Source: an uncultured Chloroflexia bacterium (lineage in GTDB: Bacteria > Chloroflexota > Limnocylindria > Limnocylindrales > CSP1-4). Taken from it: 64,000 nucleotides of DNA. Within the stretch, counting starts at the first letter, position 1. Every line of letters begins with the position of its first letter. The translations under genes were made by a program, and so were the position numbers. The stretch lies in contig CAVONF010000003.1 of the NCBI GenBank assembly GCA_963697275.1, positions 68,028-132,027 of the forward strand. The letters run 5' to 3'. The notes under the pieces were generated by a model. The model did no database searches, was not told the DNA's origin, and saw only the letters and a list, made by a program, of their open reading frames with translations. Shown here in pieces: positions 15,105 to 59,452 of this stretch.

Positions 15105-15130
15105 GCCAGCCCGACAGGAGGGACAGCCCC

Positions 15131-16281: not shown

Positions 16282-16282
16282 G

Positions 16283-20430: not shown

Positions 20431-21911
20431 ATGGGCGAAGGGGCGACGCCATCGAGACGACCGAGCGGGGAGACATCCGCCTGGGTACACCGACTGCCCT
20501 GTCTGGAGCAGGCACGTCACTATCGCCGCGCCTGGCTGGCGCGGGATCTGCTGCGCCGGCCTCGCGCTCACGGGTATCCTCGTTCCGACGGGCATGGCCT
20601 ATGCGGAGGCCTCCGGTCTACCAGCCATCACCGGCCTCTACGCCACCATCGTGCCGCTGCTGGCCTATGCCGTGCTGGGTCCCTCCCGTCTGCTGGGGCC
20701 GGATCCTCCCTGGTCCCGCTCATCCTGGCCGCGCTGGCGCCGTTCGCGATGCTGGGCTCCGCGGCACGCATCGAGCATGCCGCGCTGCTCGGGATCATGG
20801 TGGGGGTCCTCATGTGGCCATGGGCCTGCCGCGCCTCGGCTTCATTCGCCGATCTCATCTCGATGCCGGTCCGCGAAGGCTGCAGCAGCGGGAGTTGGGC
20901 CGCGAAGAAGATGACGGCGATGCCGACCAGGTATCCCCGCTGCTTCCGGCCGCAGTCAGCCTCATGCTCGTGACCGCTGCCGACACCGTCATCATCGCGC
21001 GCATCTTCGCGGCCAGGCACAGCTACCGCTCCTCACCCGACCAGGAGCTGGTGGCGCTGGGCGGCGCCGACGTCGCTGCCGGCTTCTTCTCGGGCTACCC
21101 CATCAGCTCGAGCTCATCGCGAACCGCCGTGGCCGAGGCCGCCCGACAGAAGACCCAGCTGGTCGGCGTCGTCGGCGCGCTCGCGACCACGACGATGCTG
21201 GTGTGGGCGCCCGGACCGCTGGCAGCACTCCCGGATTCCGCGCTAGCCGCCGTGGTCATCGCCGCAGCCATCGGCCTCATCGTGCTGTCGGCCTGGCGGC
21301 GCCGGACCTGGCGGCGCAGCGAGTTCCTCGTCGCACTCGTGACCCTGCTGGGTGTGCCCGTCCTGAGAGTCGTGGAGTGCATCCTGGCTGCCGTGGTGCT
21401 CTCCCTGCTGGCCTCCCCGTGCCGGGCCTGGTGGCCCCACGACGCCGTGCTCGGTCGCGAGACGGGCCTGAAGGGCTAGCACGACCTGACCTTCGATCCC
21501 GCTGCCCGTCGCATCCCGGGCCTGGTCCGCTACCGCCTCGATGCACCGCTGTCGTTCTTCAACGCCGATCCCTTCAGGGAGCGCATCCTCGACGTCATCT
21601 CCGAGGTTGACCCGCCGGCGCGCTGGGTGGTGGTGACAGCCGCCCCCACCACCGACGTCGACGCCGCCGCCGCCGAACACCTGGGCGGGTTGCTCGACGA
21701 GCTCGAGGGCCGCTCCCTGACACTCGCCTTCGCGAAGATGAAGGACCCGGTCAAGCAGCGGCTGCGGACTTGCGGCCTGTTCGAGCGCGTCGGGGAGGAG
21801 CGCTTCCTCGCCACGCTGGGGACGGCCGTGGACGGCTACCTGACCACGACCGGGACCGACTGGGTCGACTGGGAGGAGCAACGGCAGGAGGACGTCGCCG
21901 ACGCGTCATGA
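20431..21911 (+). pseudogene. SulP family anion transporter with C-terminal STAS domain, heavily disrupted (frame changes, probable internal loss and a small inverted segment)
   Basis: RRAWLARDLL, LTGILVPTGMAYAEASGLPAITGLYATIVPLLAYAVLGPS, SLVPLILAALAPF, PDQELVALGGADVAAGFFSGYPISSSSSRTAV and the STAS part [30 protein letters not shown] are spread over three frames. Confidence 0.75.
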
Positions 21912-21982
21912 CCCCCGGACCGCACCTGAGGGCCCACCGGCCCATCAGGGCGCTCGCGGGGCCGGATACCATCGCGCTCACG

Positions 21983-32581: not shown

Positions 32582-32583
32582 GC

Positions 32584-33775
32584 ATGACCCCAGGAACACC
32601 GCTCCAGCGCCTGCTCGGTGCGAGCCTGGCGCTGCTGCTGACGCTCGGCGCGCCCATGGGCCCGGCGGTGGCAACCGAGGTGGCCGTCCAGGCGGCCGAC
32701 CAGGCGGCGGTCCAGGCGGCCGACCGGGCGGCCGTCCGGTTCGGGGAGCCGCAGGCGGCGGGTGACTTCGGCGAGACCGTCGTCTTCCGGACGTCGTTCC
32801 GGTCGCCCACCGCGCCACGGCGCGTGGAGCTGCTGACGGCGCTGCCCCACGACAGCGGCCAGCGCGTCAGTGTCGCCTCGATGGAGCGGACCGGTCCGGA
32901 CACCTGGGAGGCCACCGTCTTCCAGGGTGGCCACGTGGTACCCAATACCTCCTACGCCTACCGCTTCCGGGTCATCGCCGAGGACGGCCCCGTCCTGGGT
33001 CCGGAAGCGACGCACCGGGTCGTCGATACGCGCCTGGAGTGGCAGCAGCTCGCCGGTGACCACGTCACCGTGTGGTGGCACGCCGGAGACCGGGGGTTCG
33101 CCCAACGTGCCCTGGACATCGCCGAGCGCGCGGTGGTGGAAGCCGCCGAGCTGCTCGGCGTGCGCGACATCGAGCCGGTCGACTTCTTCATCTACTCGGA
33201 CAGTCGCGCCTTCCGCCAGGCCCTGGGCCCGGCGACGCGCGAGAACGTCGGCGGCCAGGCGCATCCCGACATCCGCACGCTCTTCGGGCTCATCGAGCCA
33301 CGCCAGGTCGAGTCGGACTGGGTCGAGGAGCTCGTGGTCCACGAGCTGACCCACCTGGTCTTCGACGAGGCCGTGGGCAATCCGTACGACTACCCGCCCC
33401 GCTGGCTCAACGAAGGCCTGGCTGTCTACCTCGCGAGGGCTACGACGCCGGCGATCGGGCGCAGGTGGCGGGCGGCCGCGCGTACGGGCACGATCATCCC
33501 GCTCGAGGGCCTGGCCGGCCAGTTCCCGACGCGGCCGCGCCGCTTCAGCCTGGCCTACGCCGAGAGCGTCTCCGCCGTCGACTACTTCGTCGAGACGTAC
33601 GGCCAGGAGACGCTCGTCGAGCTCATCACCTCGTTCGCGGACGGCCGGCGGTCGACGAGGCCTTCGTGGCCGCCACCGGGCGCCCTTCCCCGCCTTCGAG
33701 GACGCCTGGCTGGCGTCGGTCGGCGCGGAGCGTCCAGAGCCCTACGGGCCGCGACCGGCCGAGCCCGGTCCATGA
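32584..33775 (+). pseudogene. peptidase MA-like secreted zinc metalloprotease, frame-disrupted near the 3' end
   Basis: A signal peptide, then WVEELVVHELTHLVFDEAVG and PRWLNEGLAVYLAR (HExxH plus a downstream E). The C-terminus ..FVAATGRP..EDAWLASVGAERPEPYGPRPAEPGP-stop is reached only after frame changes. Confidence 0.65.
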
Positions 33776-33831
33776 CCCTGCCGGATGCGGGGGCAGCGAC
33801 GTCCGGCGGCTTTGCTACGCTGAGGTCATCC

Positions 33832-35281
33832 ATGGAGACCTGGCCCGACGCGCCCTCGATACCGCCACCAGCTCGGCGCCGAGCTATGCCGACGTCCGCG
33901 TCGTGCGACGCCGGGACCAGATCGCCACCGTCAAGGGCGGGTCGGGTGGACGGCCTGAGCCTCGGCGAGACGGAAGGCTTCGGGGTCCGCGTCCTCGTGG
34001 ACGGCGCCTGGGGCTTCGCCAGCTCCGGCCGCATGGACGGCCCGGAGGCGGACGAGGTCGCGGCGCTGGCCGTGCGCATCGCGCGCGCCTCGGCCCGCGT
34101 CGCCCACCGACCGCGTCGTCCTGGCCGACCGGCCACCCGCGCATGGGCCGCTACGAGACGCCGGTCGCGCGAGGACCCCTTCACGGTGCCCATCGACCGC
34201 ACCGTCGACATGCTGCTCGCGGCCGAGCGCGCCATGGCGGCCGTCCGGGCGTCGCACCACGAAGGCCGACTACCACGCCTTCCGGGAGTGGAAGGAGCTC
34301 TACGCCACGGATGGCTCGGAGACCGAGCAGGTCATCACCCACGTCGGTGCCGGCCTCGAGGCGCAGGCCGCCAGCGACGACGACCTGCAGCGTCGCACCT
34401 TCCCGGAAGCCGGCGGCTACCGCGCGGCGGGCTACGAGCACGTCCGCGGCCTGGACCTCGTCGAGCGGGCGCCCGTGCTGGCCGAGGAGGCCGTCGAGCT
34501 GCTCTCCGCGCCCCAGTCTGCCGCCCGGCCGCCGCACCATCGTGCTGCACCCCTCGCAGCTGTACCTGCAGATCCACGAGAGCTGCGGTCACCCCACCGA
34601 GCTCGATCGGGTCTTCGGCACGGAGGCCGCCTACGCCGGCACCAGCTTCCTGACCACGGACAAGCTCGATGCCGGCTTCCGCTACGGCTCCGACCTGGTC
34701 ACGCTCGTGGCGGACGCCACGACGCCGGGCGGCCTGGGCACCTTCGGCTGGGATGACGAGGGCGTCGCCGCGCAGCGCGTGCCGCTCGTCAGCGAGGGCA
34801 TCTTCAGCGGCTACCTGACCAGTCGCGAGACGGCGCCCCGCATCGGCCGGCGGCAGCGGCGGCGCCATGCGCGCCGACGGCTGGAACCGCCTGCCGCTCA
34901 TCCGCATGACCAACATCAACCTGGAGCCGCGCCCGGGCATGAGCCTCGACGAGATCATCGCCGACACCGATGACGGCCTGCTCCTCGAGTCGAACCGCAG
35001 CTGGTCCATCGACGACCGGCGGCTGAACTTCCAGTTCGGCGTGGAGATCGCTCGCGAGATCAAGGGCGGCCAGCTGGGGCAGCTCTACCGCAACGCCACC
35101 TACACCGGCATCACGCCCCAGTTCTGGGGCTCCTGCGATGCCGTGGCTGACGAGCGCAGCTGGATGCTCGTCGGCGTGACCAACTGCGGCAAGGGCCAGC
35201 CGGGCCAGGGCATGCACGTGGGCCACGGCTGCAGCGGCGCGCGCTTCCGGGACGTCCAGGTCGGGGTCGGGCAACTCGTGA
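33832..35281 (+). pseudogene. tldD: TldD family metalloprotease, multiply frame-disrupted
   Basis: YADVRVVRRRDQ, GFGVRVLVDGAWGFASS, LQIHESCGHPTELDR, WDDEGVAAQRVPLVSEGI, RADGWNRLPLIRMTNINLEP and VGVTNCGKGQPGQGMHVGHGCSGARF lie in alternating frames (32569, 33072 and 34867 ORFs). Confidence 0.8.
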
Positions 35282-36633
35282 GCAGCCGCCAGTCCGGAGG
35301 GCATCGAACTCGCCGAGCGTGCGGTGGCCATGGCGCTCGAGGCCGGCGCGACGCAGGCCGAGGCGCTGGTCATGCGCAGCCACGAGCGCGCTGACGCGCT
35401 TCGCCAACAACGAGATCCACCAGAACGTGGCCGAGACGGACACCGTGGTGAACCTGCGCTTCGTCGATGGCCAGCGGGTCGGCGTGGCCTCCGGCAATCG
35501 CCTCGATGACGCCGCGCTGCGCAGCTGGCTGACTCAGCCGCGATCACGGCACGACTGCAGCCGGAGCACAGCGACTTCACCTCGCTGCCCCGTCCCCGGC
35601 CCACTCCGCTCGTCGCCGGTGCCTACGCCGCCGCCACGGCCACGGCTGACCCGGAGGACCGCGCCGACGCGGCCGCGGCCGTCATCGCCGCGGCCGAGGC
35701 GGTGGGGGCCCAGGCCTTCGGCTACGCCCAGACCGGCTGGGAGGAGGTCAGCGTCGTCAACTCGCTGGGCATCCGTGTCAGCGAGCCGCGCACCCGGGCG
35801 CAGGTGCTGACGGTGATGATGGGTCCCGGCGGCGGGACCGGCTACGCCGAGCAGGTGGCCGTGGACATCGCAGCCATCGATGCCTCGGCCATCGGCCGCG
35901 AGGCTGCCGAACGCACCCGCGCCATGCGCGACCCCATCGAGCTGCCGGCTGGGGACTACCCGGTGGTGCTCGACAGCTACGCGGTCATGGACTTCACCGA
36001 CATGCTCGGCTACCTCGGGTTCTCCGCCCTCGCGGTGCAGGAGGAGCGCTCCTTCTTCGAGCCCGGCAAGGTCATCGGCTCACCGTTGGTCAGCATCAGC
36101 GACGACGCCGCCGACCCAGCCGGCACGCCAGCCTCGTTCGACTACGAGGGCGTGCCCACGCAGCGCGTCACGCTCGTCGAGGCGGGCGTCTGCCGCGACG
36201 TCGTGCATGACACACCAGACAGCCGCCCGGGCCGGCCGTGACATCGACCGGCCACGGCCTGCCGGCCCCCAACCCCTGGGGCCCGTTCCCGCTGCACATG
36301 ATCATGGCCGCGGGCGAGCACCCCGCGCGACGAGCTCATCGGCGGCCTCGAGCGCGGGCTGCTGGTGACGCGCTTCCACTACACCAACGTGGTGCACCCC
36401 AAGCCGGTCATCATCACGGGCATGACCCGCGACGGGCTGTTCCTCGTCGAGGACGGCGCAGGTCCGGGCAGCCGTGCGCAACCTGCGCTTCACGCAGAGC
36501 TACCTCGAGGCCCTCGCCGGGGTCGAAGCCGTGAGCTCGGAGCGGCGCGCCCTCGAGGGCTTCCTGGGGACCGCGCTGGTGCCCGGCGCTGCGCCTCCGC
36601 TCGTTCACGTTCACGGGCACGACCGAGCACTAG
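35278..36633 (+). pseudogene. pmbA: PmbA/TldE family metalloprotease partner, multiply frame-disrupted
   Basis: IELAERAVAMALEAGATQAEALV, TRFANNEIHQNV, DYPVVLDSYAVMDFTDMLGYLGF, FDYEGVPTQRVTLVEAG, LLVTRFHYTNVVHP and RNLRFTQSYLEAL lie in at least four frame segments. The stop is at 36631-36633. Confidence 0.75.
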
Positions 36634-36661
36634 GGCGCAGATCGCTGGACCGACCACCGCG

Positions 36662-38178
36662 ATGAGCCACATCAGGGAGCAGGTCGACGACGCCATCACC
36701 ATCGAGGGCGGCAGCGACCTCGGGACGCCCAACGCGTCCTGCCCAACCCCAGGTTCCTGGCGCTCTTCGGGTCGCAGATCTTCACCCAGGTCGGCGGCAA
36801 CATGGTGCTGTTCGGCCTCACCGTCACGGTCTTCGGCCTGACCGACTCGAGCACCTCGGTCAGCATCCTGCTGCTGACGTTCCTGGTGCCCGCGGTCGTC
36901 TTCGGCGCCATCGCCGGGGTCTTCGTGGACATGTTCGACCGGCGCACGATCCTCATCTCCACGAACTTCGCGCGCGGCGGGCTCTTCCTGCTGCTGGTCT
37001 TCTTCGCCGACCAGATCGCACTCATCTACGTGGTCACCGCCATCGTGGCCACGCTGACCACCTTCTTCGCGCCAGCCGAGGCGGCCATGATCCCGCTGGT
37101 CGTCAAGCGCGACCAGCTGATGACCGCCAACAGCCTCTTCATCCTGGCTCTGCAGGCCTCGTTCGTGCTGGGCTTCGCGGTGCTCGGGCCGCTGGCCCAG
37201 ACGGTCTTCGGGACGCAGATGCTCATCCTCATCGTGGCCGTGGCCTACGGCCTCGCCGGACTCTTCTGCTGGGTCCTGCCCTCGGCCCCACCCAGCAGCG
37301 CCGGGCAGGCCTCGCTGGCATCGGCCCGGGGCGCCCTGAGCTCCACGTATGAGCAGCTCAAGGAGGGCCTCGCCTACATCCGTCAGCACCACAACATCTT
37401 CTGGTCGCTGACGTACCTGGCCATGGTGGCCTCGCTCATCGGCGTGCTCGGCGTGCTCGGCCCGGACTTCGCCAAGTCCGTGCTGGGACTCGAGGAAGGC
37501 GACCTGGTGGTGGTGCTGCTGCCGCTGGGCGCCGGCCTCATCGGCGGCATCGTGGTGCTCAACCTCATCGGCAAGTACCTCTCGCGACGGCGCCTCATCG
37601 AGGGCGGCATGATCGTGCTGGCCGCGTCACTGGTCATCCTCGGCCTGGCCCAGAACCTCGCCGCCCCGGGCGATGGTGACGACATCACGGCACTCCTGAC
37701 CGTGGTCGTCATCGTGGCCTTCGTCGCGGGCATCTGCTACGCGTTCGTGGCCGTGCCCGCACAGACATCGCTGCAGGAGGAGCTGCCCCCGGACGTGCGC
37801 GGCCGCGTCTTCGGCGTGCTCAACATGCTGGTGAGCCTGGCGTCCTTCATGCCCATCATCGTCGTCGGCCCGCTGGCCGACATCGTCAGTCCCGCTGCCG
37901 TCATCGTGACCGCGGCTGTCATCGTCGGCGTGGTGGGGGTCCTGTCCATCCTCTTCGCACATCCACGCGTCACCGGCTCGGCCAGGCCCGTCAACATCGA
38001 GCCGGTCGATCCGATGACCATCACGACCGCCTCGTCCACGCTGAACCGGCCCGTCCGGCTGCGCTACATCGCCGAGGACGGCGCGGGTGGCGGACCCATC
38101 CAGATGCTCGCCAGCCCGGTCGTGCCCGGCAGGGCGGGTCCGGCTCCGGAGCGGCCGCCTCACCCGCCGCACGGCTAA
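36662..38178 (+). CDS. MFS transporter (the first ~25 codons appear to be in another frame)
   Basis: ORF 36802..38178 is a 12-TM-like MFS body. TM1 (LPNPRFLALFGSQIFTQVGGNMVLFG) lies upstream of its first ATG in the same frame without a start codon. The only upstream ATG (36662) is in a different frame. Confidence 0.7.
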
Positions 38179-40899: not shown

Positions 40900-45165
<4,266 letters not shown>

Positions 45166-46219: not shown

Positions 46220-47513
46220 ATGGCGTTCCCTGAGTCCCGCACCCGCGGCGGGCGACGGTCATGGCGACCGCGCTGGCCACGGCAGCGCTGCTCTTCTCGA
46301 GCATCGGCGTCGCGGCACAGGACACGAGCACCACCCTCGGCTCGAACGAGAGCGACGAGGTCCCGAAGCACGGCGGTCGCACAACATCGTCAACTACTGC
46401 CAGGAGCAGGCCGGCATCGATGTCACGGTCAACGTCAACGACCACAACACCTTCCAGAACCAGATCAGCGCCTATCTGCAGGGCACGCCGGACGACATCG
46501 TCAAGTGGTTCGCCGGCAACCGCCTGCGCTTCTTCGCGGCCCAGGGCCTGCTCGCGCCGATCAACGACGTCTGGGACAGAGGTCCATGCAGTACCAGACC
46601 GAGGGCCTCAAGGACGGCCTCCACGGGCGACGACGGCAACCAGTACTTCGTGCCCGGTCTACAACTACCCTGGGTGGTGATGTACCGCAAGAGCGTCTGG
46701 GACGAGAAGGGCTACACCGTGCCCACGACCATGGAGGAGTTCAAGGCCCTGGGCGACCAGATGATCGCCGACGGCCTGATCCCGCTGGCCCTTGGCGACC
46801 AGGACGGCTGGCCGGCCATGGGCACGTTCGACATCCTGAACATGCGCCAGAACGGCTACGACTTCCACATCGGCCTGATGGAGGGCCGCGAGCAGTGGTC
46901 CGACCCGCGCGTCAAGACGGTCTTCGAGATCTGGCGCGACGACGTCCTGCCGTACACGCAGGAGGGCGCGCCGGCCGCACGTGGCAGGATGCCGCCAAGG
47001 CGGCGCTCGTCGACAAGACCGCGGGCATGTACTTCCTGGGCACCTTCGCCGCTGAGCAGGCCGCGGTCGAGGACATCCCCGACATCGGCTTCTTCCCCTG
47101 GCCCGACGCTGGGCACCGAGTTCGACGCCGAGAACGCCATCGACGCGCCGATCGACGGCTTCATGCTCAGCGCCAACCCCAAGAACCCCGAGGCCGCCAA
47201 GGCCTTCCTGAAGTGCGTCGCCACGCCTGAGGCGCAGCTCGCCTACGTGCTGACGCCGGGCATCGGCAGCGTGGCGGTCTCGCCGCTGGCCGACACCGAG
47301 CGGCTACAACACGCTCCAGGCAGCCTCGGCCGAGGTCCTCAAGAACGCCGGCAACATCGCGCAGTTCCTGGACCGGGATGCACGCGCCGACTTCGCCGGT
47401 CCGTCCGGCATGCAGGGCTTCCTGCTCAGCTTCCTGACCGACCCGGACCAGGACCTCGACGCCTTCCTGGGCGGCATCCAGGCCTACTACGACTCGCTTC
47501 CGCCGGAGGCTGA
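46220..47513 (+). pseudogene. sugar ABC transporter substrate-binding protein, multiply frame-disrupted
   Basis: A signal peptide ATALATAALLFSSIGVAAQ, then NQISAYLQGTPDDIVKWFAGNRL, PWVVMYRKSVWDEKGYTVPTTMEEFKALGDQMIADGLIPLALGDQDGWPAMGTFD and LSANPKNPEAAKAFLK lie in several frames (the 46127, 46261, 46650 and 47410 ORFs). The 3' end is approximate. Confidence 0.75.
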
Positions 47514-47619
47514 TCGACGTGATGACCCTCCAGTCCTGACACGGACCGGCAGGACCTGGCTGCGACCCCCGTCCTGCGCCACGCCGGACGGGGGTCGCAC
47601 ACATGCGGGAGGAGAGCGG

Positions 47620-48728
47620 ATGACAGTCGCTGCCGCTCGCGGCAACCCGGTCGTCCGGATCGTCCTGAGCCTGCTTGCCATCGCGCGTCGGCGTGGTCGC
47701 GCTCGCTGGTGCTCGGCTACGGCGCTGCTGGCGTTCCTCATCGTGCCGCCGGTCGAGGTGGTCACGGTCTCGGCCGTCGTCGTCACCGCGCTGGTCGTGC
47801 TTGGCCGTGACCGCGGTCGTCGTGCGCTCCAACCGGTCGGCCGCACTCTCGCGGCGCGACAAGATCACGCTCGGGCTGATGGTCGGCATCCCCACGTCCA
47901 TCCTGACCATCTTCATCCTCGTGCCCGCTGGTGGCATCGTTGACGCTGTCGCTCACCAGCTGGAACGGGATCGGCGGCCTGGACTCGCATCCAGTTCGTC
48001 GGCCTCAAGAACTACATCGACCTGCACCAGGTCTACAAGCCCTTCTACCCGGCACTGCTGCACAACCTCATCTGGCTGCTCTTCTTCATCTTCATCGCCA
48101 CGCCGCTGGGCATGTTCTTCGCCGTCCTGCTGGACAAGAACATCCGGGGCACGCGCTTCTACCAGAGCGCGCTGTACATGCCGGTCGTGCTCTCGCTGGC
48201 CATCGTCGGCTTCATCTGGCAGCTCATCTATGCGCCGGAGCAGGGCCTGCTCAACAACATCCTGGGCACGAACACGCCAGGGCAACCTCATCAGCTGGCT
48301 GGGTGATCCGAACATCAACCTGTGGGCCGTCCTGGTCGCCGCCAGCTGGCGCCACGTCGGCTACGTGATGGTGCTCTACCTGGCCGGCCTCAAGGCCGTC
48401 GACCCGACGCTGCGTGAGGCCGCCTCGATCGACGGCGCCAACGAGCGTCAGACCTTCTTCCGCGTCGTCTTCCCGGTGCTGAAGCCCATCAACATCGTGG
48501 TCATCGTCATCACGGTCATCGAGTCGCTGCGGGCGTTCGACCTGGCCTTCATCGTCAACAAGGGCCTCAACGGCCTGGAGCTGCTGTCCACGCTGGTCAC
48601 CAACAACATCATCGGTGAGACCAGCCGCATCGGCTTCGGCTCGGCCATCGCGGTCGTGCTGCTCGCTGCTCTCGGTCGTGCCCATCGTCATCTACCTGAG
48701 CCGCGCCCTGCGGGAGGACAACGCATGA
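47620..48728 (+). pseudogene. sugar ABC transporter permease (MalF-like), frame-disrupted
   Basis: GGGAGGAGAG lies upstream of the ATG at 47620. The pieces LTSWNGIGG, MFFAVLLDKNIRGTRFYQSALYMPVVLSLAIVGFIWQLIY and SWRHVGYVMVLYLAGLKAVDPTLREAASIDGANERQTFFRVVFPVLKP lie in different frames. Confidence 0.75.
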
Positions 48729-49651
48729 CCGCCGCAGCCTCACGCCCAGCGCCGTCGGCGCGCAACACGCGGACGGACCTGCGACGGGCCGCACTGCACG
48801 CGTTCCTCATCGCCATGGCGATCCTCTGGCTCCTGCCGCTTGCCTTCGCGGTGTACACCAGCCTGCGTCCACGCGAGGAGACCGACGCCCTCGGCTACCT
48901 GTCGCTGCCGCCGCACGACCGCTCAACCTGGACAACTACATCAACGCCTGGGACCAGGTCCGAGCTGGTGCGCTACTTCCTCAACACGCTCGTCATCGTC
49001 GTCCCGGCGGTGCTGCTGGTGCTCTTCCTGGCCTCGATGATGGCCTTCGCCGTGTCGCGCTACAGCTGGCGCTTCAACCTCGTCTTCCTGCTGCTCTTCA
49101 CGGCCGCGAACCTGCTGCCGCCGCAGGTCATCATCACGCCGCTCTACCGCATCTTCCTGCGGCTCTGGCTGCCCGACGGACGTCGGGGTGGCGGGGTTCC
49201 CGTCGGACAACGGGCTCTTCTACGACCAGTACATCGGCATCATCGCCATCCACGTGGCCTTCCAGCTGGGCTTCTGCACGTTCGTGCTCTCCAACTACAT
49301 GAAGACCATCCCACGCGAGCTCAACGAGGCCGCCGTCGTGGATGGCGCGTCGATCTGGAAGACCTATCGGTCGGTCATCATGCCGCTGACGCGGCCGGCC
49401 CTGGCGGCGCTGGCAACGCTCCAGGTGACGTGGGTCTACAACGACTTCTTCTGGGCCCTGGTCCTCATGATCGGCAGGGCTCCAAGATGCCCATCACGTC
49501 CGCGCTCAACAATCTCAAGGGCCAGTTCTTCACCGACTACAACCTGCTCGCTGCGGGCGCGGTGCTGGTGGCGATACCCACGCTCATCGTGTTCTTCGCG
49601 CTGCAGAAGCAGTTCATCAGCGGCCTGACGCTGGGCTCGACCAAGGGGTAG
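48725..49651 (+). pseudogene. sugar ABC transporter permease (MalG-like), frame-disrupted
   Basis: ATGA overlap with the upstream permease. The pieces LHAFLIAMAILWLLPLAFAVYTSLRP, NTLVIVVPAVLLVLFLASMMAFAVSRY, NEAAVVDGASIWKTYRSVIMPLTRPAL and LLAAGAVLVAIPTLIVFFALQKQFISGLTLGSTKG lie in more than one frame. Confidence 0.75.
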
Positions 49652-50051
49652 CTCTGTCGCACCTGGCCGGTCGCACCTGGTCGGTCGCGCCTGGGAGCGC
49701 GCGTGCACGCGACGGCGCCAGCCCCAGGGTCCCAGCCGTCACCAGGGCGGAACCGAGATGTGCCGCTCGTCGCTGGCCCGGTCGAGCGGCGGATCGACCT
49801 CGCGGTTCCTGTCACCCATGCAGCGGCGGACTGGCAGGCAGACAGCGGCATCCAGCCGGCCACTCGCGATAGGTCCAGACAGGCGGAAGCATGCCCGTCC
49901 ACGCTCAGGAGCGGGCCGCCGCTGAGGCGACCCGACCGAAACCGCGCCCAAGGCGGCGCGCAAGGCTGTCGAGTAGTCCGGGGGTGACTGGGTGACAGGA
50001 ACGATACGGCGGACCGCCGTCCCAGCACCGGCGATCGGGCCGCTCAGTCGG

Positions 50052-51241
<1,190 letters not shown>

Positions 51242-51349
51242 GGGCCCGATGGTACGGCCGATCAGGGCGGCCCGCTGGCCTCTCGTGGTACGGTTTCGCG
51301 GTCGTGGATCGACCGTCGTCGCCGTGGCGCCCGATCCGGGCGTCCAGGC

Positions 51350-52312
51350 ATGCTGCTCTGTGCGGTATTGGCCGGGGTGCTGATCGTGCCCGGGTCGACC
51401 GGCGCAGCCGCGGGCGACGATGCCCGGGCCGCCGCGCGCCTCGCAGCCGAGCCCGCCAAGGCCGGGTTCCGCGTCGGCAAGTGGGAGCTCCAGCAGGTGA
51501 CCTGGAAGCAGCTCCACTTCACCGGGGGCGCACCCCTGCCCGTCAAGACCGTCGGGCCGAAGGATGACAAGGGCATCTCCCTGCGACCCCTGGGGCCGGG
51601 CAAGTCACTCGTCTACAACCCGACCGTGCTCGCCCAGCAGGGCATGAAGCGGCTCGACACGTGGCAGCAGACGGGCAAGTCCGTGCACCTGCGCTACGCC
51701 CGCAAGCTCGTGCGCAAGCTCGACGAGCTGGCCGTCGGCAACCGCAAGCTGCGCTGGCAGCCACATGACTACCCGCGTGGCGGCAATGGCGTGGGCTGGG
51801 TGAACTCGAACTCACATGGCCTGGTGCTCTCGTTCCTGAGCCGTTTCCACCGCCTCACCGGGTCCGCGCGCAGCCTGGAGGGCGCGCGGGCCATGCTGGC
51901 CGCGTTCGGGGCGCGCAAGGGGGAGCGGCGCTGGTTCAGCGTGGTCACGCCGTCGCGCCACATCTGGTTCGAACACTGGCCCGGTGGGAGATATGCCCAC
52001 ACCCTCAATGCCCACATGAACGCCGCTCTTCGGCCTCTACGACTACTGGCAGCTGACCGGATCAGCCAAGGCCAGGCGCTACTTCCTGGGCGGCGCGCAG
52101 ACCGTCCGCGCCAAGCTGCACAAGTTCCGTCGCGAGGGCAAGCTCTCGCGCTACAGCCTCAGCGGCACGAGCGGCTCGCTGCACTACCACCACACGCACA
52201 TCTGGCAGCTGCGGCTGCTGGCGCGCATGACCGGCGATCGCTGGTTCGCGAAGCAGGCACAGCTGTTCAAGCAGGACGAGCGCGCCTGGCGCGCCGCCGG
52301 TCGCCCCGACTG
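51350..52312 (+). pseudogene. secreted D-glucuronyl C5-epimerase C-terminal-domain-like protein, one frame change near 52030
   Basis: Signal peptide [46 protein letters not shown].., HTLNAHMNA then (next frame) LFGLYDYWQLTGSAKARRYF..LSRYSL..HYHHTHIWQLRLLARMTGDRWF resembles the C5-epimerase C-terminal domain pattern. Confidence 0.55.
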
Positions 52313-52436
52313 AGCCAAACCAACGCGGATATCTGCCCTGGCTGGTCGCACTCCCGGCACGCGCTGGTCTACGATGAGCGCGCACACCAGACAGCGGCAC
52401 GGCGTTCGTGGCTGACCAGCATCGAGGAGGGACAAC

Positions 52437-52682
52437 ATGATCCAGCGTGGCATCGGCATCACGGTCGGCGCCCTCGTGACCCTGATCCTTCTAGTCCTCA
52501 TGGCGGGCGGGAACCCCTGGCAGGACTACATCGCACCACTCGTCATCGGTGGCGTGGCGGCCTTCTTCTGGCCCGTCGTCATCGGCTGGTATCTGGTCCG
52601 CCGCGGCAAGCAGCGCCGGGAGGACCAGATCCAGAGCGAAGTGCAGCGCCAGCTCGACCAGGAGCGCAACCAGGGCCGCTAG
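52437..52682 (+). CDS. small membrane protein (2 TM plus a charged C-tail)
   Basis: 81 aa. GAGGAGGG precedes the ATG. There are two hydrophobic spans, then RRGKQRREDQIQSEVQRQLDQERNQGR. Confidence 0.55.
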   Translation: MIQRGIGITVGALVTLILLVLMAGGNPWQDYIAPLVIGGVAAFFWPVVIGWYLVRRGKQRREDQIQSEVQRQLDQERNQGR

Positions 52683-52767
52683 CCACCCGGTGGGGTGGGC
52701 GGCCGCTCGCCCCACCCGCAGCCACCGTGTCATACGCTGAAGGGCCGACCCTGACCCCCGCGAGTCC

Positions 52768-54831
52768 GTGACCGACCAGGGGCGCGAGACCTACTTCCGC
52801 CCGGACATCGAGGGTCTGCGCGCCGTCGCCATCGGCGCGGTGCTGCTGTACCACGCCGGCGTGCCCGGCGCCGACGGCGGCTTCGTCGGCGTCGACGTCT
52901 TCTTCGTCATCTCCGGCTTCCTCATCACCGGACTGCTGGTCCGCGAGTGGTCCACGCACGGCCGCATCGACCTCGTGGCCTTCTACGCGCGACGCCTCCG
53001 GCGTCTGCTGCCGGCGGCGTTGCTGGCCATCGCCGTCACCACGCTGGCCTCCTGGCTGGTGCTGTCGAGCCTGCGCTTCCCGGCTGTGGCCGGCGATGCC
53101 GCCGCGGCTGCGCTGTACGTCTCCAACATCCGCTTCGCCGCCAACGCCATCGACTACCTCGGCAGCGAGGTCGCGCCATCACCGCTGCTGCACTTCTGGT
53201 CGCTGGGCGTCGAGGAGCAGTTCTATCTCTTCTGGCCGCTCATCATCCTGCTCTCGCTGCGCCTGATGGCGCAGCGCCGCCTGGGTCTCCTCATCGGCGC
53301 CATGGCCGTCGTCTCGTTCTGGCTGGGCCTCATCTGGACCGACCTGGCGGCACCCTGGGCGTTCTTCTCGCTGCCCACGCGGGCCTGGCAGCTGGGGACC
53401 GGCGCGCTCATCGCCATCGGGGTCCTGCGCCTGCCGGGCCGGACGCCGCACGTCGCTGGCATCGCTGGCCGTGTGGCTCGGTCTGGGCCTCATCGCTGCG
53501 GCGCATCGTCGTCATCGGCCCGGGCACGCCGTATCCGGGAACGGCCGCCCTCATCCCGGTCATCGGCACCGCGCTCGTGATCATCGGCGGCAGCGACCGG
53601 ACCTCGCTGCCGTCGCGCCTCCTGGCGCTGTCGGTCCCGCGCTGGATCGGACGCATCTCCTACTCCCTGTACCTGTGGCACTGGCCCATCCTGGTGCTGG
53701 TGCCGCTGGCGCTGGGCATCGAGAGCCTGGCCCTGAACCTGGTGCTGGTCGGCGTCGCCGTGGCCATCGCGGCGGCAAGCACGGAGCTCATCGAGGTGCC
53801 CATCCGGCAGGGTCGCCTGCTGCCCCTCGCCGCCGCGTGCCAGCGTCGTCACGGCGGTGTCGGCCTCGGTGCGTGGTGGCGGCGGGAGCCGTCACCGCTG
53901 GCGCCATCGTCCGTGGCCCTGGCACGACTCCCGTCGTCGCCGATGGATCGACCATCCGCGCCGGCGCAGCTCCCGGAGGCGGTCCGCACGGGGCCAGTGC
54001 CGGCGGACCTGACGCCGACGCTGGCACAGGCCTACTACGACCTGCCGAGCGGCTACGGCGATGGGTGCCACCTCGACTTCCCCGAGGTCGAGCCACCCGA
54101 GTGTACCTACGGACCCGCCGACGCCACGACGCCCGTGCTGCTGCTCGGCGATTCGCACGCACAGCAGTGGCTGCCGGCCCTGGAGCGGCTCGCGGATGAG
54201 CGGGGCTGGCGATTGCGAGCCATCACCAAGGGCGCCTGCCCGATGGTCGAAGCGACGGTGTGGAACTACCCACTGAAGCGCGCCTACCGTGAGTGCGACG
54301 AGTGGCGCGAGCGGGCCCTGAGGCTCATCGAGGAGGACGAGCCGCAGCTGGTGCTCCTGGCCGCGGCGGACATGTACGACCTGGTCGACGAGCAGGGTGG
54401 GCTCATCAGGGACGGTCCGGACGGCGAGGCCGCGGAGGCTGCCGCCTGGGATGCCGGGTTGGCGGACTACCTGGCGCAGGTCGCCGAGCGCGCTCCGCGC
54501 GTGGTCCTCCTGGCCGATACGCCACGGGTCGGCTACGACCCGGCGGAGTGCCTCGCCACGAGCGCCGGCATCGAGGCCTGCGACACGCAGCAGCGAGCGC
54601 ATGGTCGATGACGCCTACCGTGAGCGGGAGGCTGCCGCCGCCGCGGAAGCCGGGGTGGGACTCATCTCCGCGACCGACTGGCTCTGCCCGCAGGAGGACT
54701 GTCCGCTCGTGCGTGGTCCGTTCCTCGTGTATCGTGACCAGCACCATCTGACAGCCACCTTCGCCGCGCAGCTCGCGAGCCAGTTGGGCGCGGCGCTCGA
54801 TGCCGTGACTGGGGGTGACCTTGCCCGATAA
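52768..54831 (+). pseudogene. acyltransferase-3 (OafA/YrhL-type O-acetyltransferase) fused to a C-terminal SGNH domain, several frame changes
   Basis: AT3 part: RPDIEGLRAVAIGAVLLYHAG, VDVFFVISGFLIT, LHFWSLGVEEQFYLFWP, GRISYSLYLWHWP. SGNH part: VLLLGDSHAQQWLPALE..KGACP..VLLADTP..YRDQHHLTATFA. The segments are in the 52768, 53471, 52947 and 54397 frames. Confidence 0.8.
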
Positions 54832-54854
54832 CCACTCGCCCGTGCGTCCCAGGT

Positions 54855-55249
54855 CCGTGAGCCGGCTCTCCCGGCGCGGTGCCCCGGCCGTGCTCCTGCT
54901 GATGGTGCTGCTGGGGACGCTGGCCGCCACCCCGGTGCTGGCTGCCGACAGCGATGGTGATGGTCTGCGCGATGGCTTCGAGGCCCGCTGGGGCGTGACC
55001 AGTCCGACCAGCGCCGACAGCGATGGCGACGGCGTCATCGATGCCGCCGAGGACAGCGACGGCGACCGTCTCTCCGATCTGGGGGAGCAGCGCTTCCGCA
55101 GTGACCCCGGCGCCCGCGACAGCGACGGCGACGGGCGCCCAGACGGCCGCGAGGACCACGACCGGGACGGGCGCAGCAACGCCCGTGAGCAGGATCAGCG
55201 GCCCCTGCCGGCCGGGCTCCGGCCGTCGCTGGCCAGGGCGGCGGCGGAC
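54855..55249 (+). repeat. 395-bp direct repeat, copy 1 (5' modules of SGNH paralogs 1 and 2)
   Basis: Base-by-base comparison with 56011-56405 shows one difference (cccctg vs ccgctg) and no indel. Confidence 0.9.
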
Positions 55250-56016
55250 CTCTGGAAGGGTGAACGCGCCTGCAACACCCGCGCGGGCGCCGCCGACCCC
55301 AGGCGCTGCCAGTTCGGGGACCCTGCCAGCGAGACCACCATCGCCGTCATCGGCGACTCCAAGGCAGTGATGCTCATGCCGGCGTTCGTCAGCGCCGCCG
55401 ACGGGCGGGCTGGCAGGTCGTGACGCTCCTGAAGGGGGCCTGCACTCCGGTCCTGGGCACACTCAACAGCCAGCAGGACGCCCTCGACGGAGGTCGCACC
55501 TGCCGCGCCTGGCGGCGCAACGTCATCGAGCGGCTCAACGCCGACCCACCAGACCTCATCGTCTTCGTCCACTCGGATGACTACCGTCTGCTCGACGCCC
55601 GCGGGCGGACGCTTTCAGGCGAGCGCAAGGTCAGAGCCTGGCGAACGGGCATGCAACGGACCCTGGCGGCTCTGCCCACCGCATCGCGTGCCCTGCTGCT
55701 GGGAGATGTGCCTGAGAACGCGGGCAACCCGGTCAGGTGCCTGAAGAGCAACCGTCGTGACATGTCCGCGTGCCAGGCCGCCCGGCAGCCTCTCGCCCAG
55801 CGCACCATCGAGCGGGCCCTGCGCGCTGCTGCCGCGGCCGCTGGTGCGCGGTTCGGCACCCTGTACGACCAGGTCTGCAGCTACGACCCGTGCCCCCTGG
55901 TCCAGGGCAAGGTCCTGATGTGGCGCGACGATCGACACCTCACGGCCACCTTCACCGAGCGCCTGACGCCCTCGTTGCAGGGACTGCTGGCTGACACGCT
56001 GGCGGGTGACCCGTGA
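54857..56016 (+). pseudogene. secreted TSP3-repeat (DxDxDG calcium-binding) / OafA-type SGNH domain protein, paralog 1, one frame change near 55400
   Basis: A signal peptide, then DSDGDGLRDGFE, DSDGDGVIDAAEDSDGDRLSD and DSDGDGRPDGREDHDRDGRSN, followed by IAVIGDSKAVML. In the 55420 frame: KGACTPV..LLLGDVPEN..MWRDDRHLTATF. The alternative GTG at 54815 overlaps the OafA end. Confidence 0.7.
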
Positions 56017-56405
56017 GCCGGCTCTCCCGGCGCGGTGCCCCGGCCGTGCTCCTGCTGATGGTGCTGCTGGGGACGCTGGCCGCCACCCCGGTGCTGGCTG
56101 CCGACAGCGATGGTGATGGTCTGCGCGATGGCTTCGAGGCCCGCTGGGGCGTGACCAGTCCGACCAGCGCCGACAGCGATGGCGACGGCGTCATCGATGC
56201 CGCCGAGGACAGCGACGGCGACCGTCTCTCCGATCTGGGGGAGCAGCGCTTCCGCAGTGACCCCGGCGCCCGCGACAGCGACGGCGACGGGCGCCCAGAC
56301 GGCCGCGAGGACCACGACCGGGACGGGCGCAGCAACGCCCGTGAGCAGGATCAGCGGCCGCTGCCGGCCGGGCTCCGGCCGTCGCTGGCCAGGGCGGCGG
56401 CGGAC
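56011..56405 (+). repeat. 395-bp direct repeat, copy 2
   Basis: See copy 1. The offset is 1156 nt. Confidence 0.9.
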
Positions 56406-57191
56406 GTCCCCGGCGAGCGAGAGAGCTGCCAGACTGGCGCCGGTTCGTCGGAGCCCCTGGCGTGCGAGTTCGGGGTCGCGGAGAGCGCCACCACGGTCGT
56501 GCTGCTGGGCGACTCGCACGCGATGATGTATCTCCCGGCGCTGCGGCCGGTGGTCGCGGAACGAGGCTGGCGGCTGGTGACCCTCGTCAAGAGCGCCTGC
56601 CCGCCCGTGCTGGGGATCCGCAGCATCGACCAGCAGCGGCTCGATGAGGGCCGCTCGTGCCTGGAGTGGCAGCGCAACGTCTTTGCCCGCCTGCAGGCGG
56701 ACCCTCCCGATGTCATCGTCGTGGCGCACTCCGACAGCTACAAGATCGTCGATGAGGCGGGGCAGGTCGTGCCCACCCGGCAACGGCCCACGACCTGGAA
56801 GACGGGCATGCGGCGGACGCTGGCGGCACTGCCCTGGACGTCTCGTGTGCTGGTGCTGGGTGACGTTCCTGACAATCGCGGCAACCCGGTCATCTGCCTG
56901 CGAAAGCACAAGGGCGACATCTCCGCGTGTACCGCGCCCCGCGAGTCGCGAGGGCAGCGCACCGTCGAGGCCGCGCTGCGGCAGGCAGCCGTGAAGATGG
57001 GCGCGCAGTTCCGGACCCTGTACGGCAAGATCTGCACCTACGATCCATGCCCGCTGGTCCAGGGCGAGGTGCTCATGTGGCGTGATGGCGGACACCTCAC
57101 CGCGACGTTCGCGACTCGCCTGATCCCGGCGTGGCGTGAGTTGCTGGGCAGCGCGGTCGCGTCGGCGCCCAGGTCGTCAGCACGGCGTTGA
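56013..57191 (+). CDS. secreted TSP3-repeat / OafA-type SGNH domain protein, paralog 2
   Basis: Intact 392-aa ORF with a GTGA overlap with paralog 1. The N-terminal ~130 aa are identical to paralog 1. The SGNH part reads VVLLGDSHAMMYLPAL..KSACPPV..VLVLGDVPDN..MWRDGGHLTATF. Confidence 0.75.
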   Translation: MSRLSRRGAPAVLLLMVLLGTLAATPVLAADSDGDGLRDGFEARWGVTSPTSADSDGDGVIDAAEDSDGDRLSDLGEQRFRSDPGARDSDGDGRPDGREDHDRDGRSNAREQDQRPLPAGLRPSLARAAADVPGERESCQTGAGSSEPLACEFGVAESATTVVLLGDSHAMMYLPALRPVVAERGWRLVTLVKSACPPVLGIRSIDQQRLDEGRSCLEWQRNVFARLQADPPDVIVVAHSDSYKIVDEAGQVVPTRQRPTTWKTGMRRTLAALPWTSRVLVLGDVPDNRGNPVICLRKHKGDISACTAPRESRGQRTVEAALRQAAVKMGAQFRTLYGKICTYDPCPLVQGEVLMWRDGGHLTATFATRLIPAWRELLGSAVASAPRSSARR

Positions 57192-58438
57192 TGCCGGACC
57201 TGGCCCGTCCGGGGCGGTGGCAAGGCACCACCCTCCCGGGCATCACCCTGGCGCTGCTCCTCGCGCTCCTCGCCGCGAGCAGCGCGGCAGCGAGCGAGCC
57301 CGACAGCGATGCGGATGGACTCAGCGACCGCTTCGAGATCCGCTGGGGCCTGACCAGTCCGACGAGCGCCGACAGCGACGGCGACGGCCTCATCGACGCT
57401 GCCGAGGACGACGATGGCGACGGCCTCGGCGCCCTGGGCGAGCAGCGCTTCGGGACGGACCCCGGCGATGCTGACAGCGACGCTGACGGCATCCTCGATG
57501 GTGACGAGGACTCGAACGGCGACGGCCGGACCGACGCCCAGCAACAGGACCTGCGACGAGTCCCCCGCGACCTGCGGCCCAGCCTCGAGTCGGCCTGGTG
57601 GGACCGGCCCGACAGCTACGACGATCGCTGCCACAACGACGCGGTCGACGCCGAGCTGCACCCCTGCAGCTTCGCTGCGCTCGGCGGTGACGTGCGCGTG
57701 GTCATCTTCGGGGATTCGCATGCCCTGCAGTGGCTGCCGGCCCTCGTGAGCGCCGGCCAGTCAGAAGGCTGGGAGATCGTGGCTCTCACGAAGGCCGCCT
57801 GTCCGCCGGCCCAGGTCGAGTTCGGGCGCAAGGAGACCGAGGCCGCTCCCTCGTGCCGGACATGGCGGCAACAGGCGCTGGCCTGGCTGGCCGATGAACC
57901 GCCGGACCTGCTGCTCCTGGTCGGAGCCGGGCGTGTCTACAAGTTGCTCGATCAGGATGGCACACGACTGCCGCCCGAGGCCGCCCTGGCCACCTGGGCG
58001 GCGGGCCTGGCCCGGACGCTCGAAGGACTCCCCGACGCCACCTCGACCATCGTCCTCGCCGACACCCCCTTGATGCAGCCCAACCCGGTCTCCTGCCTGG
58101 AGCGGAACCCCGGGGACATCTCCGCCTGCGTCTCGCCCCGGTCAGCAGCCATCGACCAGGACCTCGACGAGGCCGAGCGCGAGACCGCCGAGGCGGCGGG
58201 TGCCTCCTTCGAGAGCCTCAATCACCTCGTCTGCCCCTACGATCCCTGCCCCGTGATCGCGGGTGACATGCTGATGTGGCGCAACGGCGACCACATCACG
58301 GCCACGTTCGCAGAGCAGCTGACCCCCGCGATGCGCGAGCTGCTGTTGCGCGCCCTCGACGACCACTCCGCGGCGGTCGACACTGACATCGCCGCCGCGG
58401 CCTCGCTCGAAGGCCCCTCGGAGGGTCCGGACGGCTGA
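57191..58438 (+). CDS. secreted TSP3-repeat / OafA-type SGNH domain protein, paralog 3
   Basis: Intact ORF. The ATG at 57191 overlaps the paralog 2 stop by 1 nt (a TTG at 57188 is also possible). Repeats: DSDADGLSDRFE, DSDGDGLIDAAEDDDGDGL, DADSDADGILDGDEDSNGDGRTD. SGNH part: VVIFGDSHALQWLPAL..KAACPP..IVLADTP..MWRNGDHITATF. Confidence 0.75.
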   Translation: MPDLARPGRWQGTTLPGITLALLLALLAASSAAASEPDSDADGLSDRFEIRWGLTSPTSADSDGDGLIDAAEDDDGDGLGALGEQRFGTDPGDADSDADGILDGDEDSNGDGRTDAQQQDLRRVPRDLRPSLESAWWDRPDSYDDRCHNDAVDAELHPCSFAALGGDVRVVIFGDSHALQWLPALVSAGQSEGWEIVALTKAACPPAQVEFGRKETEAAPSCRTWRQQALAWLADEPPDLLLLVGAGRVYKLLDQDGTRLPPEAALATWAAGLARTLEGLPDATSTIVLADTPLMQPNPVSCLERNPGDISACVSPRSAAIDQDLDEAERETAEAAGASFESLNHLVCPYDPCPVIAGDMLMWRNGDHITATFAEQLTPAMRELLLRALDDHSAAVDTDIAAAASLEGPSEGPDG

Positions 58439-58443
58439 TCCCG

Positions 58444-58632
58444 CTAGCGTTCGTCCGCGCGAGGTCCGGGTCGGCGCGCCAGGGGCAGCAGGATGGGCTG
58501 CCAGTCGATGCCGTTGCGGTCGCGGTGCCAGAAGACGATGGCGTTGTAGCGCCGAGCCAGGGCCATCACGAAGCGGTAGTCACGCGGGTTGATGGCGCCC
58601 GTCGGCAGCGGCCCGATGTCGATCTCGTCCAC
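58444..58632 (-). CDS. small hypothetical protein (start uncertain)
   Basis: The C-terminal part of ORF 58444..58848 (VDEIDIGPLPTGAINPRDYRFVMALARRYNAIVFWHRDRNGIDWQPILLPLARR) is protein-like. The upstream part overlaps the hemerythrin gene. I chose the GTG at 58632 tentatively. Confidence 0.3.
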   Translation of the reverse strand: MDEIDIGPLPTGAINPRDYRFVMALARRYNAIVFWHRDRNGIDWQPILLPLARRPGPRADER

Positions 58633-58744
58633 ACGCCCCTCAGCCTGGGGCCGATCGCGACCGATGGTCAGCCGCTGACGCCTCGGCCTATCGTATCGGT
58701 CCGTCGGCAGTTCGTCCCGGGTGGCGGCCGTCAGCGCGTCCGCC

Positions 58745-59230
58745 CTACTCGGAAGCGGCGTGCGCCAGGCCCCTGACGATGGCTTCCTGCTCCTCGCTGG
58801 AGAGGTTGCCCTGCAGGACGCGAAGGTACTCCTCCTCCTCGGCGACATGCGTCTTCACCAGGGCGTAGAAGGAGATGATGAGCCGGCGCAGGCCGAGTGC
58901 GTCCGTCGGGTTCAGCGGGCCCTTCTCTACGCGCTCCATGTACTCACCCATCTTGTCGATGAGCTCACCCAACTGGGCGTGCTCACGCTTCATGGGTGAC
59001 ATCGAGTGGCGGTTCTGCATGAGTCGTTCGAGCTCCGGGTAGACGTTCTCCTCGACGACCTTGACATGCGGCCACAGGGTCCCGGTGATGAAGGCGTACT
59101 CCTTGCCGAACTGCGTCGCGAACTCCGGCGGCGGCGGGCGCAGCTCGAGCATGTCGGCCAGTGCGGGCAGGCGGTCGACGTGCTCGCGGATGCGCTCATG
59201 GTGCTCATGACCGGTGTGTGGCAATGTCAT
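58745..59230 (-). CDS. hemerythrin HHE cation-binding domain protein
   Basis: MTLPHTGHEHHERIREHVDRL.., HVKVVEENVYPEL, MKREHAQLGELIDKM and THVAEEEEYL are four-helix His/Glu-rich motifs. Confidence 0.7.
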   Translation of the reverse strand: MTLPHTGHEHHERIREHVDRLPALADMLELRPPPPEFATQFGKEYAFITGTLWPHVKVVEENVYPELERLMQNRHSMSPMKREHAQLGELIDKMGEYMERVEKGPLNPTDALGLRRLIISFYALVKTHVAEEEEYLRVLQGNLSSEEQEAIVRGLAHAASE

Positions 59231-59452
59231 CACTGACCTCATCGCTGGGCCCGACCGTCCCCTGGCCGGAGCGTTCGTTCGAGCGGCGACCATGGCACGA
59301 CCGCCTCTTCAGAGCGTGCCCGCAGAAGGGTCGCCTCGACAGGGCCGAAGGGACCGTATTCGGCCCGGCCGGCCACGCGGGGCTACGAGGCGCAGTCGCC
59401 CGCCAGTGCGGAGAACACCAACCCCGGCGGCTCTGCTCTCGTGCACGTGACG

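Follow-up and report, generated by a model that had tools for sequence, protein, structure and literature searches.

A 64,000-nucleotide stretch of contig CAVONF010000003.1 from an uncultured Chloroflexia bacterium (positions 68,028 to 132,027 of the forward strand; referred to below as the window) encodes an AT3-SGNH protein, in which an AT3 membrane domain is fused to an SGNH domain, followed by three secreted proteins that each carry an SGNH domain of their own behind a stalk of thrombospondin type 3 (TSP3)-like repeats. The three paralogs are designated as S1 (54857..56016, + strand), S2 (56013..57191, +), and S3 (57188..58438, +), and the AT3-SGNH gene lies at 52768..54831 (+). Judged from their domains and residues, the free paralogs are genuinely homologous to the AT3-linked SGNH domain and have its linker extension and OafA-type Cys pairs. 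In comparison with related loci, the three paralogs of the window are recognized as a conserved minimal set. It is plausible, though unproven, that the free domains are coupled to the AT3 donor.

The homology between the downstream SGNH domains and the C-terminal domain of the OafA-like protein, proposed in a first-pass annotation of the window, was confirmed, as all three paralogs match the Pfam family PF19040. The scores are 109.4 bits for the intact S2 (392 residues, GDSHA ... WRDGGH) and 95.4 bits for the intact S3 (416 residues, WRNGDHIT). S1, the GDSKA-type paralog, is read in the window as two open reading frames (ORFs; 54815-55423 and 55420-56016) with one frame break at about 55405; its C-terminal half scores 59.8 bits and its N-terminal half 21.0 bits (cutoff 27). 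The paralogs are unfused to AT3, being separate ORFs with their own signal peptides, and they also match the C-terminal domain of the SucT model in NCBIfam. The annotation had named a match to a characterised lipase or esterase family as grounds against its model, and no such match was seen: no lipase or esterase family, including the Lipase_GDSL type, was matched in Pfam at E ≤ 0.01, where PF19040 alone was reported, and PDB sequence searches with S2 and with the family profile returned no esterase and nothing for the SGNH part. Those PDB searches hit only Ca-binding loops, in the biofilm protein Bap, which the family profile matches with an E-value of 1e-4.

Each of S1-S3 begins with a Sec-type signal peptide, which is followed by five DxDxDx loops. 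The signal peptides reported previously are present, and the loops number five per protein where four or five TSP3-like repeats had been described. The match to TSP3_bac (PF18884) stays below the cutoff of 25 bits in the window proteins (16.8-17.9 bits), while orthologues reach 31.5 and 27-28 bits. The nearest proteins to the stalk in NCBIfam are the myxobacterial TSP3 proteins CglD, MtsC, and MtsD.

A family alignment of 36 members was used for the analysis of conserved residues. S168 in the GDS motif, H361, R357, and eight Cys residues are invariant. The Asp residues of the five DxDxDx loops are also invariant, and residues 31-123, which cover the Asp-rich loops, the EQDxRxxPxxLxP junction, and the linker, account for 26 of the 46 invariant columns. 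The spacings of three Cys pairs, in the linker, in block II, and in the C-terminal CxxxxC, correspond to the pairs listed as conserved and disulfide-bonding in OafA (PMC7448272). The eight invariant Cys residues probably form four disulfides, and such disulfides would place the proteins outside the cytoplasm.

D358 in block V is nearly invariant, and the exception is the terminal clade to which S3 belongs, with Asn at this position plus an Asp adjoining the His. The resulting RNxDHI is found in L008, L009, L012, L014, L018, L001, L003, and L004. Of the Ser-His(-Asp) residues expected from the first reading, Ser and His are present in S1-S3, whereas the block V Asp (DxxH) is present in S1 (RDDRH) and S2 (RDGGH) and absent from S3 (RNGDH). 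Similarly, the MWRD..H pattern described as shared by the paralogs applies to S1 and S2 but not to S3, which reads WRNGDH. In OafA, the Ser and His mutants are dead, and the D587A mutant has about 10% of its activity left (PMC7448272). With Ser and His kept, the secreted paralogs are predicted to be catalytically competent.

The structure of S2 was predicted with AlphaFold (AF2), the only paralog modelled. The predicted local distance difference test score (pLDDT) is >90 from about residue 113 on, which corresponds to the linker extension and the SGNH domain, while the repeat stalk is not confident. The best match of this model in PDB is the periplasmic domain of OafB, 6SE1 (E-value 1.6e-10, target-normalised TM-score 0.65, 17% identity), and PatB and various esterases rank behind it. 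The link to OafB comes from the fold search alone, since the sequence searches against PDB were blank for the SGNH part.

The distribution of the family was analyzed with the best 120 homologues of S2 and a scan of GTDB species representatives, and the locus layout with gene tables and tblastn maps. Each of the best 120 homologues is a metagenomic stand-alone PF19040 protein with a length of about 385 residues, and their sole organism names are Chloroflexota and Candidatus Limnocylindrales, which lies within the class Candidatus Limnocylindria of Chloroflexota. Full-length relatives among the GTDB species representatives were found only in metagenome-assembled genomes (MAGs) of Chloroflexota, and the relatives with an identifiable origin are soil and sediment MAGs. 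The genes had been framed at first as an Actinomycetota system; this framing was abandoned, the named homologues being all from Chloroflexota.

The gene order is conserved: galK (- strand), a C5-epim_C gene, a gene for a small protein of about 80 residues, the AT3-SGNH gene, N TSP3-SGNH genes, and a hemerythrin gene (- strand). This layout was found in about 16 species representatives, plus L001, L004, and the window. N varies from 2 to 9, and is 3 in L008 (an Illumina assembly), L009, L012, L014, L018, and the window. In the divergent loci L030 and L031, the adjacency of AT3-SGNH and TSP3-SGNH is kept while the other neighbours are gone. A tree of the SGNH domains has four clades that run across genomes: the fused domains, the terminal clade (S3), the GDSKA clade (S1), and the S2 clade. 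In the genomes with three paralogs (window, L008, L009, L012, L014, and L018) the order is constant, with the GDSKA type first, the standard type second, and the RNxDHI type last. The possibility that the three-gene array is a truncated remnant of larger arrays was rejected, because the same ordered trio is present in five species representatives including the Illumina MAG.

Within the array, S1 and S2 are joined by GTGA, and S2 and S3 by TTGATG. These start/stop overlaps indicate co-translation within the array. The overlaps claimed by the annotation for the downstream genes thus stand inside the array but do not extend to the AT3-SGNH gene, because the most likely start of S1, judged from its homology with S2, is 54857, 26 nt past the AT3-SGNH stop at 54831.

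Two observations on array structure in relatives are recorded. In L003, a sulfatase gene (14865-16340) lies directly after the SGNH array. P0121 (1232 residues, from a Chloroflexota MAG) and L003 6582-8768 contain two or three tandem TSP3-SGNH units in one polypeptide, either as true fusions or as error-caused read-through.

The domain content of the gene at 52768..54831 supports its annotation as an AT3-SGNH fusion, but it is not a single ORF and is distributed over several frames: an uninterrupted reading frame is absent from the window, and six single-base frame breaks, ascribed to assembly error, are present. The first ORF fragment matches PF01757 (AT3) with 73.2 bits (cutoff 31; 105 bits for the intact L008 orthologue), and two fragments match PF19040 with 83.6 and 36.9 bits (cutoff 27). 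In the frame-corrected reading, the Ser of GDSHA and the Asp-x-x-His (RDQHH; DQHH) can be read. The AT3 motifs defined for OafA, R/K-X10-H in the first transmembrane helix, FFxISG, and RxxR (PMC7448272), are found there as LRAVAIGAVLLYH, VFFVISG, and ARRLRRL, respectively. The corrected frame also restores a hydrophobic stretch, ASVVTAVSASV/VVAAGAVTAGAIV, which aligns with the eleventh helix of the L008 protein (by alignment only). The closest curated model for the L008 orthologue is SucT (NF058601) in NCBIfam, aligned at residues 5-680 versus 26-721 with the e-value 5e-72. The score of 243 bits is far under the equivalog cutoff of 1275 bits, and thus the L008 enzyme is not a SucT orthologue. 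No sequence match for the AT3-SGNH orthologue was found in PDB. With these domains and motifs, the gene product is a predicted OafA/SucT-type acyltransferase.

The following function is proposed for the locus. The operon would modify a cell-envelope polysaccharide outside the cytoplasmic membrane in Chloroflexota, with an exported C5-epimerase-like enzyme, a small protein with two transmembrane segments (2-TM), one AT3-SGNH protein, and three secreted SGNH paralogs as its components. The AT3-SGNH protein would move an acyl group from acyl-coenzyme A across the membrane; this group would be acetyl or, as for SucT, possibly succinyl. The paralogs stem from duplication of the fused domain and its linker extension, the eleventh transmembrane helix being swapped for a signal peptide and a TSP3 stalk predicted to bind calcium. 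The free domains would form acyl-serine intermediates, using acyl groups drawn either from the AT3 domain or from glycan that is already acylated, and deliver them to differing positions or acceptors. The conserved TSP3 stalk may hold the free domains at the cell surface or dock them. The leading reading, an envelope-glycan acylation operon whose AT3 donor supplies the free paralogs as additional transferases, is tentative, with a real chance of being correct and a larger one of being wrong. A more elaborate version is doubtful: one AT3 donor would serve 2-9 secreted, unfused SGNH transferases derived from its own fused domain, each with its own acceptor or position, with the TSP3 stalk for surface retention or docking and gene conversion sometimes homogenising this stalk, resulting in combinatorial acylation of a surface glycan.

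The one-donor, several-acceptor arrangement suggested by the annotation is favoured by an adjacency that about 16 species-level genomes and two divergent lineages have kept, by the overlapping coding regions, by the orthologous and ordered paralog classes, and by proteins in which an AT3 domain is fused to two SGNH domains. A search with the SGNH module against 1.84 billion cluster representatives yielded 7883 matches, including stand-alone and AT3-SGNH forms. At least 14 cluster representatives of about 950-1000 residues have two SGNH stretches, and AT3 plus two SGNH domains were recognized with Pfam in all three proteins scanned from this size class. It can be argued from these AT3-SGNH-SGNH fusions that a single AT3 domain can function together with two or more SGNH domains. 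The membrane partner at the loci examined is AT3, no MBOAT gene being found within 10 kb. The C5-epimerase-like neighbour recalls alginate, a polymer that is epimerised and O-acetylated; both modifications of alginate, C5-epimerisation and O-acetylation, take place after polymerisation.

P0165, for which AT3 and SGNH are listed, is encoded in a Wzm/Wzt-type ABC-transporter glycan cluster with glycosyltransferase and UDP-glucose dehydrogenase genes. The same cluster further includes methyltransferase, pyruvyl-transferase-like, and sulfotransferase genes. P0126, P0136, P0156, and P0165 are examples of the AT3-SGNH-SGNH architecture, as is L077 8001-10889.

Several points weigh against the proposal that the free domains act as transferases fed by AT3. 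Docking of a free SGNH domain on an AT3 protein that has its own fused SGNH domain, or transfer of its acyl group to the free domain, is unproven. The synteny is the weaker evidence because tandem duplicates are adjacent by descent and not only by selection, and the adjacency is in part inherited in this way. The same genomes also contain isolated family members that lack an AT3 gene within 10 kb. One class of these, represented by L078 8001-9155 and L079 8001-9143 and found also in L007, L010, L013, and L032, has the order relA-hisS-femX-like-(eamA)-SGNH-aspS, and its position beside a FemX/FemAB-like gene hints at a link to the cell wall; other solo copies adjoin an SDR gene or an extracytoplasmic function (ECF) sigma factor gene. 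The secreted paralogs are without a membrane anchor. Sequence does not reveal in which direction the reaction runs, since the SGNH domains of OafA and OafB are also esterases in vitro, and transferases and esterases are inseparable on this basis. Finally, no glycosyltransferase or polysaccharide export genes adjoin the locus, and none were found near the solo copies in the gene neighbourhoods examined.

Some of these points are accommodated more easily if the free SGNH proteins act as de-O-acylases. Such editing or remodelling esterases would remove or trim the acyl groups added by AT3-SGNH to the same glycan, as Ape1 does beside PatA/PatB in the O-acetylation of Gram-negative peptidoglycan. 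An operon with a transferase and an SGNH esterase has a precedent in PatA-PatB-Ape1, and SGNH domains are mostly hydrolases (PMC12148441). Secreted, unanchored proteins would suit a mature polymer away from the membrane, solo copies with no AT3 neighbour would be easier to explain, and esterases are the second-ranked structural matches of the S2 model. On the other hand, the proteins are members of PF19040 with the transferase domain of OafB as the closest fold, the block II Gly and the block III GxND of typical esterases are absent as read from the alignment, and up to nine esterases for one modification seems excessive. The de-O-acylase function is considered unlikely on balance, though it deserves attention.

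Alternatively, the paralogs could be secreted esterases or lipases with a function of their own, such as the scavenging of acetylated polymers of plants or microbes in soil, and their adjacency to AT3 would come from their tandem origin only. The SGNH tree supports an origin by duplication of the fused domain, the copy number of 2-9 resembles that of nutrient-acquisition families, solo copies occur in unrelated contexts, and the relatives of identifiable origin come from soil and sediment. Such independence is difficult to reconcile with the linkage that survives in L030 and L031 despite the loss of the other neighbours, with the overlaps indicating co-translation, and with the orthologous paralog classes that keep a fixed order across species. 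The AT3-SGNH-SGNH fusions, which argue for more than one SGNH domain per AT3, and the lack of matches to characterised lipase or esterase families in the searches above also speak against it. This explanation is regarded as improbable.

The frame breaks raise the question of whether part of the locus is decaying. They were located by frameshift-aware dynamic programming, with intact orthologues aligned to the DNA of the window. Six 1-nt skips are required for the AT3-SGNH gene, at about 53456, 53505, 53830, 53873, 53946, and 54589, one correction for S1 at about 55405, and one for the epimerase-like gene at about 52026. The ORFs had been taken as intact by the annotation, and for the AT3-SGNH gene and S1 this was incorrect. 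After correction, the AT3-SGNH protein has zero stop codons and is 76% identical over the full length to the intact 686-residue orthologue of L008. The galK gene (50067-51148, - strand) requires 12 frame corrections, mostly for single extra bases, after which it is stop-free and 82% identical to its orthologue. The ORF listing and translation of the window were complemented by a frame plot of G+C content at third codon positions (GC3) and a simple frame-state model, which agree with the broken reading of the locus and indicate many frame changes elsewhere too. By the frame-state model, similar breaks are likely in 33945-36734, 40938-44315, and 46379-49654, while some genes of 3 kb are intact. 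Together, the many breaks in galK and the intact 3-kb genes show that indel errors are frequent and unevenly spread over the window.

The same genes in relatives have 0 breaks in 30.4 kb of Illumina-assembled loci versus 26 breaks in 145 kb of Nanopore-only Microflora Danica loci. The Microflora Danica MAGs are Nanopore-only assemblies with one round of Medaka polishing (PMC12313526). In one sister Nanopore MAG hisS is in four pieces, and relA is also broken in sister MAGs. The breaks in the window are thus attributed to long-read indel errors. Genuine pseudogenisation was rejected as very unlikely, because the corrected frames are stop-free, galK is likewise broken, the Illumina loci are intact, and hisS is broken in sister MAGs. 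Decay of the AT3-SGNH gene and S1 to pseudogenes, with S2 and S3 alone functional, has the breaks as read in its favour (six and one, respectively) and is extremely improbable given that every motif is intact in the corrected AT3-SGNH reading, that housekeeping galK carries 12 breaks of the same kind, that hisS and relA are broken in sister Nanopore MAGs, and that orthologous Illumina-assembled loci have none. Since the assembly is long-read and rich in indels, apparent pseudogenes in the window should not be trusted as such.

S1 and S2 share an N-terminal tract of about 380 nt (54855..55234 in S1 and 56011..56390 in S2, both on the + strand), which encodes the signal peptide and the TSP3 module. 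The tract includes 349 nt of perfect identity and one mismatch, and then the identity falls sharply to about 62% in the SGNH domains. Identical N-terminal modules are also present among the paralogs of L004 and L005, and not in the group of L008, L009, L012, and L014. This pattern suggests that gene conversion occasionally acts on the N-terminal module, and an assembly artefact is the less likely explanation of the tract in the window. Homogenisation of the N-terminus as a general feature of the family was rejected, given its absence from the L008/L009/L012/L014 group.

Upstream of the AT3-SGNH gene, both of the genes reported in the annotation are present. The C5-epimerase-like gene (51293..52313, +) has an uncertain start, GTG at 51293 or ATG at 51350, and its single frame break is the one noted above. 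The protein has an N-terminal hydrophobic segment, which may be a signal or an anchor. Pfam C5-epim_C is matched with 21.8 bits by the window fragment and with 86 bits by the intact L008 orthologue, and the search against PDB revealed D-glucuronyl C5-epimerase structures including 4PW2 (E-value 1e-6). The gene for the small protein of 81 residues with two hydrophobic segments (52437..52682, +) lies between the epimerase-like gene and the AT3-SGNH gene. It is kept in 16 loci by tblastn, and no family over the cutoff was found for it in Pfam or NCBIfam.

A GC-rich hairpin with a stem of 12-14 bp is found at 52689-52716, between the stop of the small 2-TM gene and the start of the AT3-SGNH gene. 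It was rejected as a meaningful element: it is not significant in comparison with shuffled sequences, and relatives have other inverted repeats there, with no conservation of the sequence. Scanning 51000-59400 for promoters and terminators brought no useful result.

Elsewhere in the window, an intact ORF of 989 residues at 21770-24739 (+) has the domain architecture of Pat-type protein acetyltransferases: CoA-binding, succinyl-CoA-ligase-like, and ATP-grasp domains, with GNAT at the C-terminus. This ORF has no relation to the SGNH locus. The ORF at 32569-34653 (+) encodes Peptidase_MA_2 followed by the first domain of PmbA/TldD, and may be two genes fused by a frame error.

Among known systems, the Salmonella O-antigen O-acetyltransferases OafA and OafB share with the proteins described here R-X10-H, FFxISG, RxxR, the linker extension, the PF19040-type SGNH domain, the Ser-Asp-His triad, and the Cys pairs. 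The differences are that the fused enzyme is followed here by 2-9 unfused, secreted copies of linker plus SGNH on TSP3 repeats, that a fourth Cys pair is present, that S2 is only 17% identical to 6SE1, and that the hosts are Chloroflexota. SucT of Mycobacterium smegmatis, an AT3-SGNH enzyme acting on arabinogalactan and lipoarabinomannan, aligns end to end with the L008 enzyme without being its orthologue, and no array of free SGNH paralogs is known to accompany it.

In PatA/PatB with Ape1 and in AlgI/AlgJ/AlgX/AlgF with AlgG, too, a membrane acyl donor is paired with at least one separate extracytoplasmic SGNH protein from its own operon. The alginate system has two SGNH-like proteins per donor and a polymer that is C5-epimerised after polymerisation, and the PatA/PatB operon also includes an SGNH esterase. 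In contrast to these MBOAT systems, the membrane component here is AT3 and retains its own fused SGNH domain, and the free SGNH proteins are PF19040 paralogs of that domain rather than PatB- or AlgX-type proteins. The uncharacterised AT3-SGNH-SGNH fusions resemble the locus in having more than one PF19040 SGNH domain for one AT3, but the extra SGNH domain is covalently fused, has no TSP3 stalk, and is 26-34% identical to the window paralog.

Two designs of extracytoplasmic polymer acylation were stated in 2025, one in which MBOAT is paired with an SGNH protein encoded separately and one in which AT3 and SGNH are fused (PMC12148441). A review of AT3 proteins describes stand-alone AT3 and fused AT3-SGNH forms and mentions unfused SGNH partners for MBOAT systems only; it raises the question of the 'missing' SGNH for stand-alone AT3, and how the acyl group leaves AT3 is still asked (PMC9558356). 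The annotation had noted no characterised example of this architecture, and likewise no description of AT3-SGNH with an array of free TSP3-SGNH proteins was found in the literature searched, including searches combining SGNH, thrombospondin type 3, and acyltransferase.

If the proposed coupling is true, the locus would present an AT3 protein working with SGNH partners in trans for the first time, and would bridge the AT3-fused design and the design of MBOAT plus separate SGNH. The array and the AT3-SGNH-SGNH fusions together offer a way to test the charging of SGNH domains in trans and the evolution of acceptor specificity. The locus also offers an initial clue to how envelope glycans are modified in the abundant, uncultured Limnocylindria-like Chloroflexota of soil.

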